A stretch of DNA of 64,000 bases from Eledone cirrhosa (lineage: Eukaryota): assembly GCA_964016885.1 (NCBI GenBank), contig OZ024740.1:421538001-421602000 (forward strand), read 5' to 3'. Shown one piece after another: positions 14,660 to 26,442 of the stretch (positions are counted from its first letter, which is position 1; each line of letters starts with the position of its first letter). A program made the translations under genes and the position numbers. The notes under the pieces were generated by a model. The model had not been told where the DNA came from. It made no database searches and was given only the letters and a program-made list of their open reading frames with translations.

Positions 14660-15155
14660 TGTCATGATAGAAAGCACTCAGTCCACGCTGTAAAGTCCAT
14701 ACTGTAAAGTGATCATGTCAGCATCAGAAAGCACCCAGTCCACGCTGTAAAGTCCATACTGTAAAGTGATCATGTCAGCATCAGAAAGCACCCAGTCCAC
14801 GCTGTAAAGTCCATACTGTAAAGTGATCATGTCAGCATCAGAAAGCACCCAGTCCACGCTGTAAAGTCCATACTGTAAAGTGATCATGTCAGCATCAGAA
14901 AGCACCCAGTCCACACTATAAAGTTGTTGTATTGATGCCATGCTAAAAAGCACCCAGTTCATACTGCAAAGGGGTTGTTTTGATGCCATGATAAAACACA
15001 TCCAGTCCACGCTGTATATGTGGTTGGCATTAGAAACCACATCCAGTCGTAGAAACCAAGCCAGAATCAGTTCTGTTTGAGCATGTCTCATAATGGGACA
15101 ACTCATGTAACCTCATGTTAGCATGGAAAAATAGACATTAAACAGTGATGATGAT
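14660..15155 (+). mobile_element. Same SINE-like family with an internal 57-bp tandem expansion (14670-14925, ~4.5 copies)
   Basis: Unit AAAGCACCCAGTCCACGCTGTAAAGTCCATACTGTAAAGTGATCATGTCAGCATCAG, followed by the family 3' end and GATGAT tail. Confidence 0.85.
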
Positions 15156-15167
15156 ATATATATATAT

Positions 15168-15288
15168 ATAGGAAAATGTTCAAGACCCCGACGGCAGAGC
15201 TCAAGCCGTTTCGGCGGCTATTTCTGGTCCAGAAATAGCCGTCGAAATGGCTAGAGCTCTGCCGTCGGGGTCTTGAACATTTTCCTAT
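15168..15288. repeat. ~121-bp near-perfect palindrome (hairpin/MITE-like)
   Basis: ATAGGAAAATGTTCAAGACCCCGACGGCAGAGCTC...TTTCTGG-T-CCAGAAA...GAGCTCTGCCGTCGGGGTCTTGAACATTTTCCTAT; ~60-bp arms with ~3 mismatches. Confidence 0.95.
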
Positions 15289-15507
15289 TACCCACTCTAC
15301 TACCCAAAGTATCAAGTACTCTGGTGCGTTATGGTCCACCTGGTTCCTTACCACACCTCCTTTGTTATATATATATATATATATATATATATCAGGATAC
15401 AACCAGTTTAAAACTAGTTAGATCATTACTCAACAGAGTACTCAATACTTGGGGTAGTAGAGTATGGTTATATTATAAAGAGTTGGGATTCAACTACTGA
15501 GCTCTTA

Positions 15508-15543
<36 letters not shown>

Positions 15544-15610
15544 CAAGGATCTGATACCATCAACACCATAAACACAGAGCTGGCATATCTAAGAACTGAC
15601 TAACTGACTA

Positions 15611-15666
15611 ACTGCCTGATGAGGTCATAGCCATTCAATGGCTATCATCGAAATATATATAGCAGT
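15611..15666 (+). ncRNA. Type I minimal hammerhead ribozyme motif (Penelope/retrozyme type)
   Basis: Stem I ACTGC/GCAGT; CTGATGA core 15616-15622; stem II GGT-C-ATAGCCAT/ATGGCTAT-C-ATC; GAAA 15650-15653; palindromic stem III ATATATAT; predicted cleavage after AUA (15661); AATAAA follows. Confidence 0.8.
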
Positions 15667-15769
15667 AAATAAAGGATTATGAGTTCATGCAATTGTCTTA
15701 TGTTTCATCACTATATATATATAACTGAAATTTACAGACGTTTTAAAGAAGTAAAATGTGAAAGAATAC

Positions 15770-15861
15770 CCTGCAATAACTAAGTAGTTTCCATTAACTC
15801 TCTGCCAACAAAACTGGATAGCTCCATTTCCATTTTTTTCTTTTGGTATAGAAAATAAATC
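15770..15861 (-). CDS. WDR19: WDR19/IFT144 coding exon 2 (92 bp)
   Basis: ttttgcag|GAT TTA...GCA GG|gtattc; encodes DLFSIPKEKNGNGAIQFCWQRVNGNYLVIAG versus recalled human [31 protein letters not shown]. Confidence 0.92.
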
Positions 15862-16249
15862 CTGCAAAAGAGAAAAAAAACAAACGCACAAACTCATCAA
15901 TAAATTTTCAAATAAATTTGGCAATACTACTATCTAAAGCTAATGATAACGAATATAAAATACAAGATTTAATAGATTGACCACTTAGTATCTTATTGGT
16001 ATTCAGTTATATCTTGATGGCTCAGTCCATGATGTTGTAAACAGGTACCATGAGTAGGTACACTGAGCACTGCATAATTAATAAGTATCTAATTATCTAA
16101 TTAATGTGTAGGAGAAGTTGAACAAAGATGGATTATCAGCAACATCTGAATAAGAACCCTTAAGAATGAGACAGTCAGGAAACGAAGGGTAGGGAAGCTA
16201 TAGAACCTCTCTGTTAAATATAGGTTCAGTAAAACTCTACATGGTGTGT

Positions 16250-16742
16250 ATGACATGGAGGAGGATATAGAGATATGACATGGAGGAGGATATAGAGATA
16301 TGACATGGAGGATATAGAGATATGACATGGAAGATATAGATATATGACATGGAGGAGGATATAGAGATATGACATGGAGGATATAGAGATATGGCATGGA
16401 GGAGGATATAGAGATATGACATGGAGGAGGATATAGAGATATGACATGGAAGATATAGAGATATGACATGGAGGAGGATATAGATATATGACATGGAGGA
16501 GGATATAGAGATATGACATGGAGGATATAGAGATATGACATGGAGGAGGATATAGAGATATGACATGGAAGATATAGAGATATGACATGGAGGAGGATAT
16601 AGAGATATGACATGGAGGAGGATATAGAGATATGACATGGAGGAGGATATAGATATATGACATGTAGGAGGATATAGATATATGACATGGCGGAGGATAT
16701 ATAGAGATATGACATGGAGGATGTAGACAAATGACATGGAGG
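16250..16742. repeat. 25/22-bp minisatellite (~20 copies)
   Basis: TGACATGGAGGAGGATATAGAGATA and a variant lacking one GGA. Confidence 0.95.
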
Positions 16743-16799
16743 ACAGTCAGAAGTTTCTATGTGACTAGCTGCTGCAGGCTTCTGATGTAACACAGAGCT

Positions 16800-17450
16800 G
16801 GAGCAAGGTAGTAACCAGTGAAAAGGTGACTTGTCTTTGGAATAGTACTGTAGACAGGTATGGAAAAACTGGGAAACTGGGGGAAGCATAGGACAGTATC
16901 AAGTAACTAATAGAGAAGCTAGACATCAGGAGTACATAGCACTTAGGGAAGATGAAAGCAGGAGGTTTGCCCATGTTTTGTAATGTGGGGATGAGAGGTT
17001 TGAGGTGGTCTACATTGCAAAGCTGTGTATCAGTGTGAATGAGAATGTCATAGGAGAAAAGTGTGTTGAGAATAACACCAGTGAACTCAGACTCAGCACT
17101 GAGACTTTGAAATGTTACTATGAGAGGTTGCTGAATGAGAGGAATGAGGGGAAGGATGAGAGAATACCCCGCCCCCCAGTAAACTTAACTGACGGGCTAA
17201 CTCTGGAAGTTGACAGTTACAGGATCCAAAGTCAATAAGATACTGACATAATTTAGTTAAGAAGATGTAAAGCTAGTGACTCGCTTAATTAGGTAATACA
17301 TGACGATATCCAATGACTGGTATAGCTGTATAATCATTAATTCTTACAAGGGAAAAGGTGACGTTCTAGAAACGAACAACTACAGGGGAATAAAACTGAT
17401 GGCTCGAGTTATGAAGATGGCAGAAAGATGTTATCACAACTAATATAGTA
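16800..17450 (+). mobile_element. Decayed RTE-type LINE fragment (linker and start of RT)
   Basis: Broken frames give WKTGGS, YYERLLNE and YKGKGDVLETNNYRGIKLM (NYRGI is an RT domain-0/1 motif). Confidence 0.7.
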
Positions 17451-17459
17451 GGTTTAGTT

Positions 17460-17690
17460 TTATTAACAACATTTTTTTAAAAATCATAAACAAATCTATT
17501 TCAAATAACAACACTACAGATATTTGAAAACGGAAAGGGAAGAGAAAAGCAAGGGTTCTAGGGTCACAGAAGATCGAGAGGGTGATGGGCTCTGGTCCTA
17601 GGGCCTGGCGGTGTTAGGGCTGCACCCCGCGGACAAGGCCGCAAAGGTATTTCCACGGACAATGGCCAGCGACACCCGCTGCAACAACAA
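17460..17690 (-). mobile_element. 5'-truncated CRE-clade LINE 3' end
   Basis: Minus strand encodes LLLQRVSLAIVRGNTFAALSAG, the QR.S.AI.RGN C-terminal motif of CRE-like ORFs, then a pyrimidine-rich UTR and A-rich tail. Confidence 0.7.
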
Positions 17691-18339
17691 TTAGGGAAAG
17701 AATAAAATTAGGTGAGACGCAATTTGGCCTTGAGCTAATAAAGAGCACTATTGTCCGTATTACATGGATTCAATATTGATTTCTTACATATGCGCAAAAC
17801 CTCAAATTTAATATTAATTCAATATTAAATACATGTTTTAGGGGAACTAACTTTTTAAATGTAATACGTTTTAAATGTAAAGTATCTTTTATTTTCTTTT
17901 CTTCCCATTCATATAAAGACAGATATGTAAGTGTTTGAGTGCGCTAGTCACTATTTTTTATTCTCTACATGTTTACTTACGTTCTTATTTTATTGAGAGA
18001 AAGGGAAAGAGAAAGAACGAGAGGGAAAGTGGCCGAAATTAGAATATATAAAACTAAACAGAAGTAAAGATAGTAGAAGTAATAATATGAGCAATTTTAT
18101 TGAGTTTGTTGACTGTTTTCAAAGAGCAACAAGTATCTCAAATAACTATTTATTAGCATCATCACCATCATTACGATTTAAAACATTAAAAATAACCGGA
18201 ACCATAAAGTTTATAAATATTATCAAATATATATTCTCTTTAAAAAGACGCCAGAAATTAAAAAAGAATAAGATTAGAAAACGAATAGCAATGATTTTAA
18301 GTGAGTTAAAATATAAAAGTTTCAAACTGAGAAACCTAC

Positions 18340-18345
18340 CTTCAT
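18340..18345 (-). CDS. WDR19: WDR19 coding part of exon 1 (ATG AAG, Met-Lys)
   Basis: caaaaATGAAG|gtaggt; phase 0 into exon 2; human WDR19 is recalled to begin with the same 6-nt MK exon. Confidence 0.8.
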
Positions 18346-18350
18346 TTTTG

Positions 18351-18364
18351 GCTTCCTTGACAAC
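18351..18364. promoter_or_regulatory. RFX X-box next to the WDR19 start codon
   Basis: GCTTCCTTGACAAC fits RYYNYY-WW-RRNRAC exactly, 5 nt upstream of the ATG of an IFT gene. Confidence 0.7.
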
Positions 18365-18390
18365 AGACACTATTATGGCAGAATGGGAGA

Positions 18391-18408
18391 CACAGCACAT
18401 GCGCTGTG
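18391..18408. promoter_or_regulatory. NRF1/Ewg-like imperfect palindrome in the WDR19 promoter
   Basis: CACAGCACATGCGCTGTG; core GCACATGCGC is one mismatch from GCGCATGCGC. Confidence 0.4.
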
Positions 18409-18514
18409 CTGCTGTTGGAGAGAGTTATCTCCCTTACATCTGTTGGGTAATAGTGTGACGGCCAAACTCTTGAGGCTCCGACACCCCGTGTAATGTGTAT
18501 GACCGATTGATACA

Positions 18515-19142
18515 CATGTGGTTTCCGTGATCTGTCGGTTAACTCCCAACAGGGAGTTAGATGAAGCTCTCCTACGATGGGGTGAGTTGGGCTTGTCTGC
18601 TCCTGACAAAGTGAAGGACAGACGAAATCAGAGAGCTTGGGAGAGCATACATTCGAGGGCCACTTTTGACTCTCTCTTCGACCAGCTTGGACGAGCTTCG
18701 TGTATCCATTTCACTTGGAGTGGGAGCTGACGTCTTTACCGGTTTGAAATATCGATGTAGCAAACTCCTCGACTCCACAGTCTTTCTTGCCGCCTGAATG
18801 TCGGTCGCTTCGCGCGCCACTCGAAGCTAAACATCATCTTCAAGAGAGCTTTGGCCCGGGCAAACATCCCCTCAATTTTGGAACCGTCTGGGTTATCCAG
18901 AATTGATGGGAAAAGACCTGACGGCCTTGCCCTGTGCACTTAGTCAAGAGGCAGGTGCCTTATCTGGGACGTCACAGTTAGTGACTCTTTTGCTTCTTCC
19001 CACATCCTGGATGCTGCGGTTATAGCGAGAGCCACAGCTTCCGCAGCCAGACTGAACAAAATCCTAAAATACCATGATCTGTCGGCTAACTACATTTTCG
19101 AGCCTGTGGAGTTCAAGACGTTTGGGGGAGTCGGGCCTGGTA
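18515..19142 (+). mobile_element. CRE-clade non-LTR retrotransposon remnant (zinc-knuckle remnant plus restriction-like endonuclease)
   Basis: Frame reads [69 protein letters not shown]...KILKYHDLSANYIFEPVEFKTFGG (RH, RPD..D, K..KY motifs), with a stop and frameshifts. Confidence 0.85.
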
Positions 19143-20025
19143 AACGCATAGAATAACGAACCGATGTAAAGGACGTAATTTGAAAAAAACCAACAGCATT
19201 TATAAATAACTCTTTTCTTTTATCAAACATTCTTAAATTTTATGTATATATGCATATACTAATTGCTATACAAACTCTTTATCTAAACATACATCGAGTA
19301 ATATTCTAATCTGTAGTCATTCCGATCTCTATACCGTGAACACTTCATATATATGTACAGCCACCGGAAATAACAGCTGTGAAATATACAGCGCCATCTA
19401 CCTGTTAGCTAGCTACTTCAACGTGAAACAAAAGAACCCTTAGAACCTATCAGAATAAACGCCTACACATCGACTAAACAACAAACGATTGTTCCTGTAT
19501 AAATAGAGTGGTTGCAAACACTTCAGCTGTCGACTTTTGGCAGAGTCAGCTAGCGCATCGTTGTTCCTTTACTCTGCCACGCTTTGTCACTCACACGCCT
19601 TGTATCTCGTATCGTCGCTTCATGTGAAAATAAATAGCTGATCGAATTTACATCTCGCCTTGCTTCGTCCTTTCAACTTGTGCTTTCGTCTGTCCATCTT
19701 CAGCAGTTCTTTTAAGGGCTATATGCGACAACAGTCCTTTTAAGGGCTATCTTCATATCTGATCAGACCGTATGCGATAAGAGTCCTTCTAAGGGCTATT
19801 CTCAGATCTGATCAGAAGTAGTGACTAGACTGACTAACCACGTCGTTACATATATATAAAATACAATATGATGAAAAGGTAACACACTAGAGAGAGATAG
19901 TGCGCCATCAATAAAACAGGGAAAACCACCAGTGTATGGAATCTATAACCTATGAGAGGCAGGGTAGACACACGATAATTAAAAATATGAACTAAAGTGT
20001 AAATACGCACCTCTATAACTATATA

Positions 20026-20108
20026 ATACACGTACAAATCCAAAGAGATCTGTTTCGCCAGGAAGTTGTTGACTGAAAAGAAGTAGCCCATGGTTCATCA
20101 GCGTGTGT
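20026..20108 (-). ncRNA. Type I hammerhead ribozyme motif, copy in arm B
   Basis: ACACG-CTGATGA-ACCATGG...CCTGGC-GAAA-CAGATCTCTTTGGATTTG-TA-CGTGT; stem I ACACG/CGTGT; stem III ACAGATCT/GGATTTGT; GUA cleavage triplet. Confidence 0.7.
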
Positions 20109-20524
20109 AAGGCTGTAGCAGTAATATATATACATTCCAGACAACTAAGAGAATCTAAAGCGACCGCCCAGCTACGATGGCGCACTATCTCTCTCTAATG
20201 TGTTACCTTTTCAACATATTGTATTTTAAAGAGCTCAGGATTCCTTCTCCTTTGAGCACATTATTGACAGGGAATAGCGAGAGTCTATGGCTCCGTTAAT
20301 TTATCGTGATATTTCACTCCTTATAACAGTCTTTCCTCTCTCTGTTTGGTTGAGCACACTTCTCTGAATGGTTTTGGGCTGCCCTTTCTAGCAGCCCGTC
20401 CCTCAGAGACCACTGGTTCACTGCCCTAAAACGCTGTGACATCTCTCTCCCACGTGTAGCTGGGCGGTCGCTTTAGATTCTCTTAGAGTCGTCTGGAATG
20501 TATATACATTACTGCTACAGCCTT

Positions 20525-20607
20525 ACACACGCTGATGAACCATGGGCTACTTCTTTTCAGTCAACAACTTCCTGGCGAAACAGATCTCTTTGGATTTGTA
20601 CCTGTGT
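20525..20607 (+). ncRNA. Type I hammerhead ribozyme motif, copy in arm B'
   Basis: Same core as arm B (CTGATGA 20532-20538, GAAA 20577-20580, GTA 20598-20600); stem I ACACACG/CCTGTGT has one mismatch. Confidence 0.65.
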
Positions 20608-20679
20608 TATATAGTTATAGAGGTGCGTATTTACACTTTAGTTTATATTTTTAATTATCGTGTCTACCCTGCTAGTATC

Positions 20680-20940
20680 ACATGTACCACATGACACAAC
20701 ACCAATTATACCACACCAACTGTACTACATGACACAACACTACACCAACTGTACCACATGACACAACACCACACCAACTGTACCACATGACACAACACCA
20801 ACTGAACCACATGACACAACTCTACAGCTACTGTACCACATGACAAGACCACACCAACTGTACCACATGTCACCGCACTAACTGTACTACATGACACAAT
20901 GCCGCACCAACTGTACTATATGACACAATGCCACACCACA
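20680..20940. repeat. Degenerate 22-27-bp minisatellite
   Basis: CACCAACTGTACCACATGACACAA variants repeated about 10 times. Confidence 0.85.
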
Positions 20941-20974
20941 CAGAAGAAGACATGTAAAACATAGATTTAATATT

Positions 20975-22210
20975 GTTTGGCAGTAGATCTCTTTTTGTGT
21001 GTGTGCTTACCACCCAATCTGACATTGAAGGTGCTCTCAATTGACTATTTTTTCCACATATTATCAATGAATATGACTTTGAAACCTGACGAAAATGACT
21101 AGCTTTGGAGACAAAAGAGGGAGGAAAGTGGGCAGAAAAACCATTCACAAAGCTAGTCATTTTTTATTGCAGTGGAAGTCATATTTGTTGTTAATATGCT
21201 AAAAAACTGTCGACTGTGAGCAACTTGGAGGTTGAATTAGTTGATAGCACATGGAAAAATGTAGGGGGGAATTTTTTCTGACTTAAATCAAAGTGGAAAT
21301 TAAAGTCCTTACTTTATAGGAAAACACCATATTAAACTACCTGAAACCACACCATACCATACATCATATCATGGTAAATTTATTGCAGAACTCCTACTCC
21401 TACTGTTTACATCAACACACCATGGTATTGACATCAATGTGACAAATGTTCTTCCTGTTTTGTTTTGTGGTTACCACCCAATCTGACATCAAAGGTGCTT
21501 GCAATTGACTATTTTTTTTCACACATTATCAATGAATACGACATGGAAACCTATTGTTTACGATTGGTTTCCATGTCATAACTTCACCAAACCAAACCAC
21601 ACCATACCAAGCTACACCATGCTATTGATCTCAGTGTGAAAAATTTTCTTCCGCTTTTTATTTTCTTTGTGTGTGCTTACCATCTAATCTGACTTCCAAG
21701 CTGCTTGCTGGGTTTTTTCCACATATTATCAATGCATGTTACTTTGAAACCTGTCGAAAATTACTAGCTTTGTTGAGAAATAAGGGCTGAAAGTGGGAGG
21801 GAAAACCATTCACAAAGCTAGTCGTTTTTTATTGCAGTGGAAATCATATTTGTTGTTAACATGCAAAAAGAATAGTTGATTGTGAGCATCTTGGAGGTCA
21901 GATAAGTTGATAGCACATGAAAAACAAATTTTCCAGCTTAAATTGTTTTACCTGTCTGTCTACCTACCTACCCAATTATATATATATAAAACAAAGGAAA
22001 AATTTTTTTTTCCAACTTAAATCAAAGTGGAAATAAAAGAGAGAAAGCACACCCACACCAAACTATGGTAAAGTTATTGAAAAACAACTCCTTGATCTCG
22101 GTGTGAAAAACTTTTCTCCTGTTTTTTGTGTGTGTGCTTACCACCCAATCTGACCTCCAAGGTGCTCACATTTGGAAAAACAAATTTTCCAGATTAAACT
22201 GCTCTACCAA
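20975..22210. repeat. Diverged local tandem duplications (four partial copies)
   Basis: TGTGCTTACCACCCAATCTGAC... recurs near 21000, 21465, 21670 and 22130; the GGAAAAACCATTCACAAAGCTAGTC block recurs near 21135 and 21800. Confidence 0.8.
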
Positions 22211-22394
22211 CCTAAATAATTATATATATAAACACATCTAACTCCCTATATATCTATCTTACTATCTATACCTACCTAGCAAGGTATGTATCTTTCTGTC
22301 TGCCTTACTATTTATGTTTGTCTCTATATCTATCTCTCTGTCTACTTACCTACCTTGATAACTATCTATCTATCTTTCTAACTTCATACCTGCC

Positions 22395-22572
22395 TTTCTA
22401 GTCATACTTTCATCCAATCTTGCTAAATACTGCCCAGGTCTTTGTTGGTTGTTCTCTGCTACGGCTTCCTTCTACTGGGATTTCCTGGCATTTCTTCACC
22501 CATCAGTCATTGTCCATGCTCATCACATGTCGATACCAACGCAGCCTTCTCTCCTTCACACCATCTAAGATG
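22395..22572 (-). mobile_element. RTE LINE 3' ORF fragment
   Basis: Homologous to 30500-30650 (ATTTCCTGGCATTTCTTCACCCATC...ATCACATGTC.ATACCA). Confidence 0.75.
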
Positions 22573-22628
22573 GTAAATACAATGTCTTCTAAGTGAATAA
22601 ACACAACAAACAGATCACATAAATGAAT

Positions 22629-22634
22629 TTTATT
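22629..22634 (-). promoter_or_regulatory. Candidate EZH2 poly(A) signal (implies ~3.4-kb 3' UTR)
   Basis: AATAAA on the minus strand, with U-rich upstream and GU-rich (TGTTTGTTGTGTTT) downstream sequence. Confidence 0.4.
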
Positions 22635-22799
22635 CAGTAATTATTTTGTTGTTGCTTACAAATCTATGTTGCAACAATTAAAAAGAAAATTATAAAAATC
22701 AATGAAAAGATGAACTTGCCGGAAAAAAAAATGTAATAAAATAAAAATGTATATATTAAAAAAAATCAAAAGCTTTCTAAAATTCTGATGGAAAGGGCT

Positions 22800-22992
22800 T
22801 TAACCCAGCCATATCCAACCAGAATTCTCTCACCTCTTTCTGTTCAAACTGGCTGTAACCGGGTGCTCATACTGATGTTAAGGTATCGTTCTCAAAATAA
22901 ATATCAAAATCTCATAGATATTATGTGAGGTAAAGCCATTACCATGAAAATATAATAGTATATATAGAGTAATGTAAATGGTAAAGGGTTAA
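22800..22992. mobile_element. TTAA-flanked piggyBac-type MITE (copy 1)
   Basis: TTAACCC...AAAGGGTTAA; body similar to 57246-57464. Confidence 0.7.
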
Positions 22993-23767
22993 ACTTAAAA
23001 CAACAAAAACAAATCCATGAAATAGAAACTTATGGAGGTTTCTGTGTGTCGAAATGTGTACGTCAGTTGAGGTGACTTTAGACACAGTTACAGATTTTGT
23101 ATTTGTTAAGTAAAGTTTATTGTCAACTGGACATGTTCTAGGTAGAAATAGGTATTTCTAGAAAGGAGATATTTTCTTGCTAGCAACAGGTGAGGAAGAA
23201 TGAGCAAGTGAGAGAAAGAGTTCAGATGTTGAAGGAGAAAGAGAGAGAAAGAGTTTATATGCTGAGGGAGAAAGAAAGAGTTTATATGTTGAGGGTTAAA
23301 TAATATGATTTAATTTATTTTAATGTTGATGTCAAGTATTAGTTTAGGCTTCACTTCTACCTCCCTAAAATATTAGTAACCTATACATATTATATATACA
23401 TAGCATACAAGATGGGTAAGAGATGGGCAAACTAATTATTAAATATCCAACAGACAAACATAAGAGACAGGGAGGAATTGTTTGAGAAGAACCAGCAGAG
23501 AATTTTCCAATGCTAACTTTACACGGTAAAGGAATTTTTTGGCAGAAGTGTATCTTTTAGTTGCTAGCAACTTCAGCTCCAAATGTGAATATATTTAGAC
23601 TGTGCTGATGGTAGAGAAGAGGGGTTAATTATCCAGCAGTAGACAAAAGGAAAAGATTAACAAATATAATCCCCTCCCACACACCAACACACTCTCTATA
23701 GGGAACCACTAGGGATATTTTTTCAATGGTGGGGGTGGGTCATAAAGATAAAAATATTAATCATTAT

Positions 23768-24212
23768 AATTGTTTCTAATTTAGGCACAAGGCCGACAAT
23801 TTGTAGGAAGGAGAAAGTTGATTACATCAACCCCAGTACGTGACTGGTACTTTATTTTATTGACCCCGGAAGGATGAAAGTCAAAGTTGACTTCAGTGGG
23901 ATTTGAATTCAGAAAGTAAAGGATAAAGGACCATAAGTAAATGATACAAAACATTTCCTCGATGCTCTACTGATTCTGCCAATCCGCTGCCTAATAATAA
24001 TAACAATAATAATTGTTTCTACTTTAGGCACAAGGCCAGCAATTTGGGGGGAGGGTCGATTAAATCAACCCGATTACTTTATTTTATCGATCCCGTAAGG
24101 ATGAGAGGCAAAGCTAACCTCGGCATAATTCAAACTCAGAATGTAAAGGGTTGTAACTCTACGCTGCAAAACATGGTGTCTGACACTCTACTGATTCTGC
24201 CAATCCACCACC
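23768..24212 (-). mobile_element. Two tandem tRNA-derived SINE copies
   Basis: Same family as 12870-13275. Confidence 0.85.
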
Positions 24213-24804
24213 CCTTTATTATTATCAATAATAATAATAATCACCATCAGCAGAAATGTGAAAGTCTGGAGTAAAAAGAGATCATTTGATCAATAGAAAG
24301 TATTGAACATCTGATCTGTGGAATGATAGATTTTAACTCTTGTCAATACTGATTACTTGACAATGAGGACCCCAACAATGATGTTGATGATATCGAAAAG
24401 GATAACAAGTTTTTAATTACTCTCAGGTCTCGAATAATCACCTCACACCCTACGTATGTGTGTATGACTCATACACTGTTCCCTTCCCTGACTTTTGTAC
24501 ATTATTCTATGTACTGTACATGCACCTTTGACGAGTTGTAGTGCACCTGAGCACTGTACACAATAATTTTCTTTATTATATTATGAGAAAAAAAAGTAGA
24601 TTACTAGAAATCCCATACATTATAAAATAGGATGGGCTAGGGTCTCAACTTGTAAACTAAATGATTAATTCTGTTTTTTTTTTTAAATCAATGAATACAA
24701 TCTAGAAAAATTAACAATTTTCCACCAACTCCCCTTATTATTTGGGACCCGGAGTAGGTTGAGAGAATTGTTTTAACCAAGGACACAATGTACTGCCTGA
24801 CTTC

Positions 24805-24808
24805 TACT

Positions 24809-24844
<36 letters not shown>

Positions 24845-24965
24845 ATAGTATTAGTGTTGATTGTAGTAATTGTAGTAGGTGGTGGTAGTAGTAGTAGTGT
24901 TGGTGGTGTAGTAGTAGTGGTGGTGGTAATAGTATTAGTGTTGGTGGTGGTAGTAGTAGTAGTAA
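24805..24965. repeat. (GTA/GTG)n trinucleotide microsatellite
   Basis: Directly visible. Confidence 0.95.
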
Positions 24966-25184
24966 CAACATACATGAAATAGGTGTATGTAGCTGTATAA
25001 TACTCTCACACAGTTCTGTGTGTCTGTGTAAATATATTAGAAATTTATTGAATGTTTCTGATATTATTTTCATTGGAAAAGTGAAATAGGTGCAAGGGTG
25101 ATACGTATGACCAATGTATTCTGAGGTGGACTTAAACAACTGATATACAGAGATATTCAGATGAGTATGAGGGAAAATAATATA

Positions 25185-26012: not shown

Positions 26013-26073
26013 TCAGGAAACTTCGTTATCCCTCTCGATTCCAACAAACTTCAATTGTTCAGTGGGGCCATAC
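26013..26073 (-). CDS. EZH2: EZH2/E(z) terminal coding exon
   Basis: ttccag|G TAT GGC...TCC TGA; encodes YGPTEQLKFVGIERDNEVS*. Confidence 0.96.
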
Positions 26074-26130
26074 CTGGAACAAGAATAACAGGAATAGAAG
26101 ATCAATAAAACTTATAACATTTTACTTTCA

Positions 26131-26442
<312 letters not shown>

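Follow-up and report, generated by a model that had tools for sequence, protein, structure and literature searches.

A worn back-to-back insertion of an abundant non-coding repeat with a hammerhead motif and Penelope-type ends upstream of WDR19 in Eledone cirrhosa

Animal retrozymes, a mussel family among them, are non-coding monomers of a reported 51-972 bp that carry a type I hammerhead (Cervera 2020, PMC7229834; Li 2026, 10.64898/2026.07.22.740005). They have been linked, mainly in vertebrates, to the pseudo-LTRs of Penelope-like elements (PLEs), and one of nine elements cleaves (Li 2026, 10.64898/2026.07.22.740005). PLE insertions themselves are described as comprising an inverted 5'-truncated copy, partial tandems, a tail of 30-40 bp and a bias towards (TA)n, and putatively non-autonomous PLEs have been reported as well (Craig 2021, PMC8557442). 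The PLE tail is defined by two internal RT start sites, and ribozyme cleavage is dispensable in vitro (Frangieh 2024, PMC11167929). Dual PLE hammerheads lie 100-700 bp apart on opposite strands; those of metazoan PLEs virtually lack stem III and conserve a G10.1-C11.1 pair, and a long helix III occurs in fungal and protist PLEs (Cervera 2014, PMC4209133). For a squid genome, 235 hammerhead-1 loci are given (PMC6962438).

The window analysed is a stretch of 64,000 nucleotides of E. cirrhosa DNA in which two inverted-repeat pairs interlock in the order A-B-A'-B' (Table 1), as an earlier note on this DNA had described. A and A' are 53 nt long and 96% complementary, whereas B and B' reach 95.9% over 219 columns, differing by five mismatches and two 2-nt indels. 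The same note regarded A and A' as TIR-like arms that bracket a 372-bp unit, a view that the genomic copies contradict. A', the spacer, B and the gap between A and B are consecutive parts of one non-coding monomer of 535-540 bp (41% GC), with a period of 535 bp at locus L004 and of 540 bp at locus L021; genomic loci contain A', y, B and x in succession, after which the sequence starts over, which identifies a head-to-tail unit. A is an internal piece of this monomer, it is present twice in the window because both arms include monomer positions 1-52, and the A-B-A'-B' order results from where the two arms happen to break.

The window copy is accordingly a partial minus-strand monomer fused 5'-to-5' with a plus-strand one, and the interlocking repeats represent a single worn insertion in which an abundant non-coding repeat of 535 bases with a hammerhead motif stands back to back. 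The local layout is what such inverted insertions ordinarily produce; in this copy both arms happen to extend over the hammerhead. An insertion of 13-15 nt is common to both window arms and was found in no other locus of the set then compared; one donor therefore made both arms, which have since drifted apart by five substitutions and two small indels. The 3' end of the right arm falls about 100 nt short of the usual end, probably through later loss, and abuts a minisatellite of 24-29 nt units (window 20681-20959, plus strand).

Table 1. Positions in the window of the insertion, its parts and the flanking gene ends.
Feature	Position	Strand	Remarks
Left arm, partial monomer (B-x-A, monomer positions 282 to 52)	19857..20175	sense on -	3' end at 19857 adjoins (TA)n
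Right arm, 0.93 monomer (A'-y-B', monomer positions 535/1 to 485)	20176..20672	sense on +	
A	19857..19909	-	monomer positions 1-52; first 3'-end hot spot of the family
x	19910..19958	-	49-nt monomer part that joins B to A in other copies
B	19959..20175		inverted pair with B'
A'	20176..20228	+	monomer positions 1-52 again, immediately following the head-to-head junction 20175/20176
y	20229..20455	+	rest of the monomer; 20312 is the second 3'-end hot spot (position 136)
B'	20456..20672		inverted pair with B
Type I hammerhead motif, minus arm	20026..20108	-	predicted cut 20033^20032; stem I broken at the sixth pair
Type I hammerhead motif, plus arm	20525..20607	+	predicted cut 20600^20601; stem I broken at the second pair
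WDR19 start codon	18343..18345	-	1.5 kb from the closest element end; a later exon encodes the Pfam WDR19 propeller
Stop codon of SET-domain (EZH2-like) gene	26013..26015	-	5.3 kb from the element

The placement of the insertion upstream of the WDR19 start and downstream of EZH2 is confirmed by the gene ends in Table 1 and by an EZH2-type SET exon at 26128-26442; the SET-domain gene that ends at 26013 is probably EZH2, judging by sequence likeness. No sign of a functional link of the element to WDR19 or EZH2 was found. The surroundings contain other repeated sequence. Broken frames at about 18500-19150 (plus strand), some 150 nt upstream of the WDR19 start codon, have no Pfam match but look like the terminus of a CRE-type non-LTR element that carries its restriction-like endonuclease. 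Just left of the insertion, a repeated element holds three short hairpins (19701-19799, plus strand) that resemble the histone 3' stem-loop, with an Rfam Histone3 score of 18.2 bits, which is short of the cut-off of 34. At 15161-15290, next to (TA)n, a long hairpin with almost perfect pairing, similar to sequence that flanks locus L007, is probably another small mobile element.

Searches of the organism's own genome (3.0 Gb) with B, the spacer and the x-A part returned 2,173, 2,972, 1,903 and 1,570 first-look candidates, of which 40 each were scored; these are candidate numbers and not copy numbers, and they point to what are likely low thousands of copies. The copies are dispersed over many chromosomes, often within microsatellites. 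Contigs from three runs of one sample also contain many monomer copies, and 27-35 contigs per run, in each of the runs, end in TA at 20312. The 136 genomic loci that were analysed are the top matches of a few queries and not a random sample, and they include 50 loci picked by reading frame, 40 of which are short stretches. Duplicates from the same genomic place were removed before each count, as was L075, a near-identical neighbour of L074.

The copies have a consistent polarity, in which fixed 3' ends face outward and ragged 5' ends face inward. Within 50 distinct loci, 36 contain a 5'-to-5' junction (37 such junctions vs three tail-to-tail), while 68 of 84 outer 3' ends lie at monomer positions 40-53 or 134-138 and 65 of the 84 touch TA-rich DNA. 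When 172 arms from 89 loci are binned by 15 nt, the two bins that hold these hot spots receive 68 and 63 of the 3' ends, four 3' ends lie near the predicted cut site (406-435), and 5' ends are spread over all bins. Both 3'-end sites stand beside (TA)n, about 85 nt apart and 172-260 nt downstream of the cut site. A head-to-head junction is present in 81 of the 136 loci, and the overlaps of the arms at 87 junctions centre on 0-5 nt. An arm exceeds one monomer in 63 of the 136 loci and two monomers in none, the longest measuring 911 bp (1.7 monomers); an array of two full monomers was not found among them. Two cores one period apart occur in L023, L070 and L175, the second site being mutated in L175.

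The monomer is non-coding, with no ORF under selection. Upstream of it lies monomer sequence again, for up to 1.7 units and without an ORF, and a tblastn search of 104 monomer loci, some of them overlapping, detected no RT or GIY-YIG ORF joined in sense. In the monomer's own reading frame, the longest open frame among the 150 matches listed has 338 codons, and most have 85-180. An ATG in the hammerhead core opens a hydrophobic frame of 104 codons in one subfamily (L025:1331-1642, minus strand) and of 39 codons in both window arms. A hidden protein starting at this ATG was considered and rejected, as 73 copies show a neutral substitution pattern in each frequency class (51 N and 24 S among the shared substitutions vs 50.3 and 22.2 expected). 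Such a frame appears in 21 of 1000 shuffles and was judged to be due to chance; its Atlas matches all scored below 0.8.

Each B arm contains a complete type I hammerhead layout, with CUGAUGA at 20532-20538, GAAA from 20577 and a GUA site in the plus arm, and with CUGAUGA at 20101-20095, GAAA from 20056 and a GUA site in the minus arm. This part of the earlier description stands, as do the 8-bp stem III and the long stem II insert in both arms. Stem III comprises eight pairs if A15.1-U16.1 is counted, two of them G-U, with pair probabilities of 0.59-0.98; stem II has three pairs around a 30-nt insert and is closed by A-C at positions 10.1/11.1. Stem I retains six of seven pairs in each window arm and is interrupted at a different place in each. 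The perfect helix that had been reconstructed from these two lesions does exist in the family, in which the unbroken seven-pair stem I is the commonest form (23 of 60 copies, with six more showing a compensated variant). The A-C mismatch is present as well, but it is not damage peculiar to the window copy, since 56 of 60 copies have A-C at this place, two have G-C, one A-U and one C-C. The core is intact in 45 of the 60 aligned copies and GUA in 55, and 95.0% and 96.8% of the cells of stems I and III are paired in the family alignment, whereas a stable stem II closed by G10.1-C11.1 is lacking in the family.

Curated models do not recognise the hammerhead: an Rfam search of 15000-25000 gave 14 matches at E up to 10 with no hammerhead family among them, and the motif therefore lies outside these models. 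A covariance model search of 101,902 bases found only the two window arms. Other hammerheads occur in the genome, with at least eight further type I families in the flanks of loci L004-L144; A-U, G-U, U-U or A-A stands at 10.1/11.1 in other hammerhead families of the same genome. At 15611-15665 (plus strand), within a WDR19 intron and antisense to the gene, lies another minimal type I motif, which is unrelated to those of the insertion and whose stem III is short and palindromic (PLE type); L069 contains a similar one.

Mean divergence among the copies is 0.020 in the core, 0.030 in stem III and 0.038 in stem II, compared with 0.051 outside the motif and 0.088 in the stem II insert, a gradient which suggests that the hammerhead was kept up in the source lineage. 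Shared variants in the core and stems II and III number 1/32 vs 55/362 (p = 0.04, post hoc). The expectation of a conserved and covarying core is borne out in its first half, the core being least diverged; the second half is not, as the alignment-based covariation count does not exceed that of shuffles (42 of 500 reach the score), for which a 2-nt insertion that shifts the register is partly responsible. RNAalifold, applied to the family alignment, did not recover the hammerhead and predicted another fold. Among 93 scored copies, the third pair of stem I is A-U 44 times and G-C 36 times, the other 40 of the 133 copies having been set aside because their core pattern failed (broken or with an indel); this swap is one subfamily event counted many times.

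In the copies that were folded, stem II has a pair probability of 0.0 (five of five) and the hammerhead fold costs 4.5-10.4 kcal/mol above the minimum; a circular monomer folds with z = -1.9, on only 30 shuffles. For an RNA that spans the window, the predicted fold pairs B with B' from end to end (-473.5 and -466.8 kcal/mol for the two strands), and on both strands the antisense arm is transcribed before the ribozyme-sense arm; therefore only an RNA that starts between the arms could form the ribozyme. The idea that a transcript of either strand could cleave itself is not sustained by these predictions. Both window ribozymes are probably silent in any read-through RNA, given the B/B' pairing and the mutated stem I in each, and the copy would then be a passenger between EZH2 and WDR19.

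The genome also contains PLEs. A young family (L092, G000:C18:6375500-6383500) has an intact frame of 784 aa with RT and GIY-YIG domains (Pfam RVT_1 and GIY-YIG), its copies are 98-99% identical among 150 scored matches, and its fixed 3' end lies at (TA)n. An overlapping upstream frame of 455 codons has no Pfam match, and a pattern search of the 1.2-kb 3' UTR revealed no canonical hammerhead. Older PLE relatives and Pfam GIY-YIG matches are also present. The linkage of the repeat to PLE RT/GIY-YIG ORFs that the earlier note had envisaged was encountered neither in 90 PLE loci nor in the 104 monomer loci. The PLEs at the former, which represent at least two families and were taken from more than 10,000 candidates, share no extended sequence with the monomer; only four of the 90 loci contain the monomer, and those inspected are separate insertions across a TA tract or in unrelated flank. 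L129 and L211 were considered as cases of partner linkage and rejected, as monomer and PLE are there neighbours across TA tracts. The sole likeness of the monomer to the 3' end of the young PLE is a 12-nt stretch, which is equalled or beaten by 30 of 346 control windows. The units of a 3.87-kb tandem array at L091 (G000:C2:359516500-359526400) each consist of a truncated PLE copy in inverted orientation and flanking sequence, with a different hammerhead.

Compared with the animal non-LTR retrozymes, the family shows the same non-coding head-to-tail monomer with one type I hammerhead, a GC content of 41% and a length within 51-972 bp, as well as thousands of likely dispersed copies and PLEs in the same genome. 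It differs in that no two-unit array exists among the 136 loci (the longest being 1.7 units), in that most copies are partial and inverted, in its stem III of eight pairs as opposed to one or two, in being known here from genomic copies alone, and in that no sequence link to a PLE pseudo-LTR was found. Endonuclease-bearing PLEs (PMC8557442, PMC11167929) likewise show raggedly truncated 5' ends with an inverted, 5'-truncated copy next to them, partial tandems, insertion at (TA)n, an ATG in the hammerhead region, and a tail downstream of the hammerhead that is delimited by two alternative 3' ends; unlike these elements the family has no RT or GIY-YIG ORF, and its tail measures about 85 nt instead of 30-40. 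The type I layout and the opposite-strand pair, with cores 431 bp apart in the window, recall the PLE pseudo-LTR hammerheads (PMC4209133), whereas the long stem III, as in the fungal and protist PLE variants, and the A-C at 10.1/11.1 set it apart from the metazoan ones. A family-wide mismatch at the base of stem II is also known from the axolotl HHR_Amex2, which cleaves modestly in vitro (PMC7229834), but which has U-U in place of A-C, a stem III of two pairs and a short loop II.

We consider it likely, with a probability of about 0.8, that the 535-540 bp hammerhead repeat is copied by an autonomous PLE and has left one back-to-back insertion here. The earlier proposal of a non-autonomous, hammerhead-bearing and Penelope-linked retroelement gains support from the insertion pattern and from a monomer without an ORF. 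Judged by its sequence, the element would work like a non-autonomous PLE or a non-LTR retrozyme, which it resembles in every sequence criterion save the two-unit array and the partner. It appears to be a new family of a known kind: no published description of the family or of its A-C pair was located, and Repbase and paper supplements, which lay outside the search, may list it.

The starting point of the proposed mechanism is the head-to-tail monomer without an ORF under selection. The end polarity, the pair of fixed internal 3' sites, the TA targets and the tail-out arms together fit target-primed reverse transcription by a PLE protein with internal initiation. In this model (TA)n DNA would be nicked by the enzymes of an autonomous PLE, which would initiate reverse transcription at either of the two fixed sites in the repeat RNA. 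In this step, which we regard as very likely, a Penelope-type RT/GIY-YIG protein would prime at position ~48-52 or 136 and copy backwards over a variable length, and two copies, one per nicked strand, would join 5'-to-5', often via a few shared bases, into a tail-out inverted pair. Of 47 arms that were selected irrespective of the cut site, 32 extend well across it and are intact there, so that the template would be either a religated circle or an uncut tandem RNA. The former would arise from two successive hammerhead cuts of a tandem transcript followed by ligation, so that copies could exceed one unit; an uncut tandem transcript is an equally open alternative. We rate the circle at about even odds, since, as we infer, an element lacking an ORF has to regain more than its own length in each generation, and since three loci have two cores one period apart. 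The 5' ends of eight of the 47 arms lie at 414-424, just past the cut site, but closer inspection extends the match of two of them further upstream; TATATA occurs in the monomer only at 419, and pairing with a TA target explains this pile equally well. In 33 arms, the mean difference between repeated parts of the same arm is 5.5%, vs 7.1% to the median other copy, which is compatible with either a circle or a tandem donor.

The same element and the same Penelope-type insertion might also be combined with a hammerhead that is a weak or dead relic, its copies coming from uncut tandem transcripts without a circle, a reading that we hold to be possible at somewhat less than even odds. It would account for the A-C at the base of a three-pair stem II, for a hairpin that competes over the core and for a stem II probability near zero, and the passage of most arms through the cut site agrees with it, but a circle would let RT pass that site just as well. 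Cleavage was unnecessary for insertion in vitro in one study (Frangieh 2024, PMC11167929) and was seen in one of the nine elements tested in another (Li 2026, 10.64898/2026.07.22.740005), and two autonomous-type families have no hammerhead in the 3' UTRs inspected. On the other hand, the core and stems are the least diverged parts of the monomer, stem I shows a compensated change between subfamilies, and the axolotl hammerhead still cleaves with U-U at the same place (PMC7229834). More tentatively, and in our estimation rather unlikely, the element could be an invertebrate retrozyme that differs from most animal ones in having a full stem III, cuts as a monomer despite its fixed A-C, and yields circles on which a Penelope RT would start copying at two internal sites 85 nt apart.

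It is improbable that the copies are dead ends, each the 5'-truncated tail (pseudo-LTR) of an autonomous PLE made afresh and none part of a self-propagating non-coding unit. Their insertion pattern is identical to that of PLE tails, but arms longer than one monomer in 63 of the 136 loci continue upstream into monomer again, up to 1.7 units, and neither the tblastn search of 104 loci for a sense-joined ORF nor the longest own frame (338 codons among the 150 matches listed) discloses a coding body. The layout of this single window, between two same-strand genes, invites a quite different picture, that of a distinct element bounded by the TIRs A and A' with ribozymes on both strands that possibly end or process EZH2 or WDR19 transcripts; this is very improbable, as the breakpoints vary by locus and A is internal to the monomer, against the conserved TIRs around a fixed unit that a MITE or TIR DNA transposon has, as the core lies on both arms in only six of 136 loci, the window included, as read-through RNA is predicted to fold B on B', and as each arm has its own stem I lesion, just as neutral decay predicts. 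Hardly more credible is a DNA-level satellite or fold-back spread by recombination without an RNA intermediate, which the many inverted copies in microsatellites might suggest but which strict polarity, dispersal over many chromosomes and the lack of long arrays oppose.

With a non-coding repeat copied by a PLE as the preferred reading, the interest of the family is modest in that the class itself is known, and resides in its stem III and tail, both long, and in the fixed A-C pair. The family provides a test case, as a unit without any coding sequence has Penelope-type ends here, alongside young intact PLE ORFs in the same genome; a recent report names invertebrates and the mechanism of mobilisation as untested for the link between retrozymes and PLEs (Li 2026, 10.64898/2026.07.22.740005). 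If a hammerhead with a long stem III and an A-C pair cuts, search descriptors would have to be widened, as Rfam missed the motif. If, moreover, the reading as a monomer-cutting retrozyme were true, the many head-to-head copies would be a ready source of long double-stranded RNA, and thousands of genomic ends would constitute a direct record that ties retrozyme circles to Penelope-type priming.
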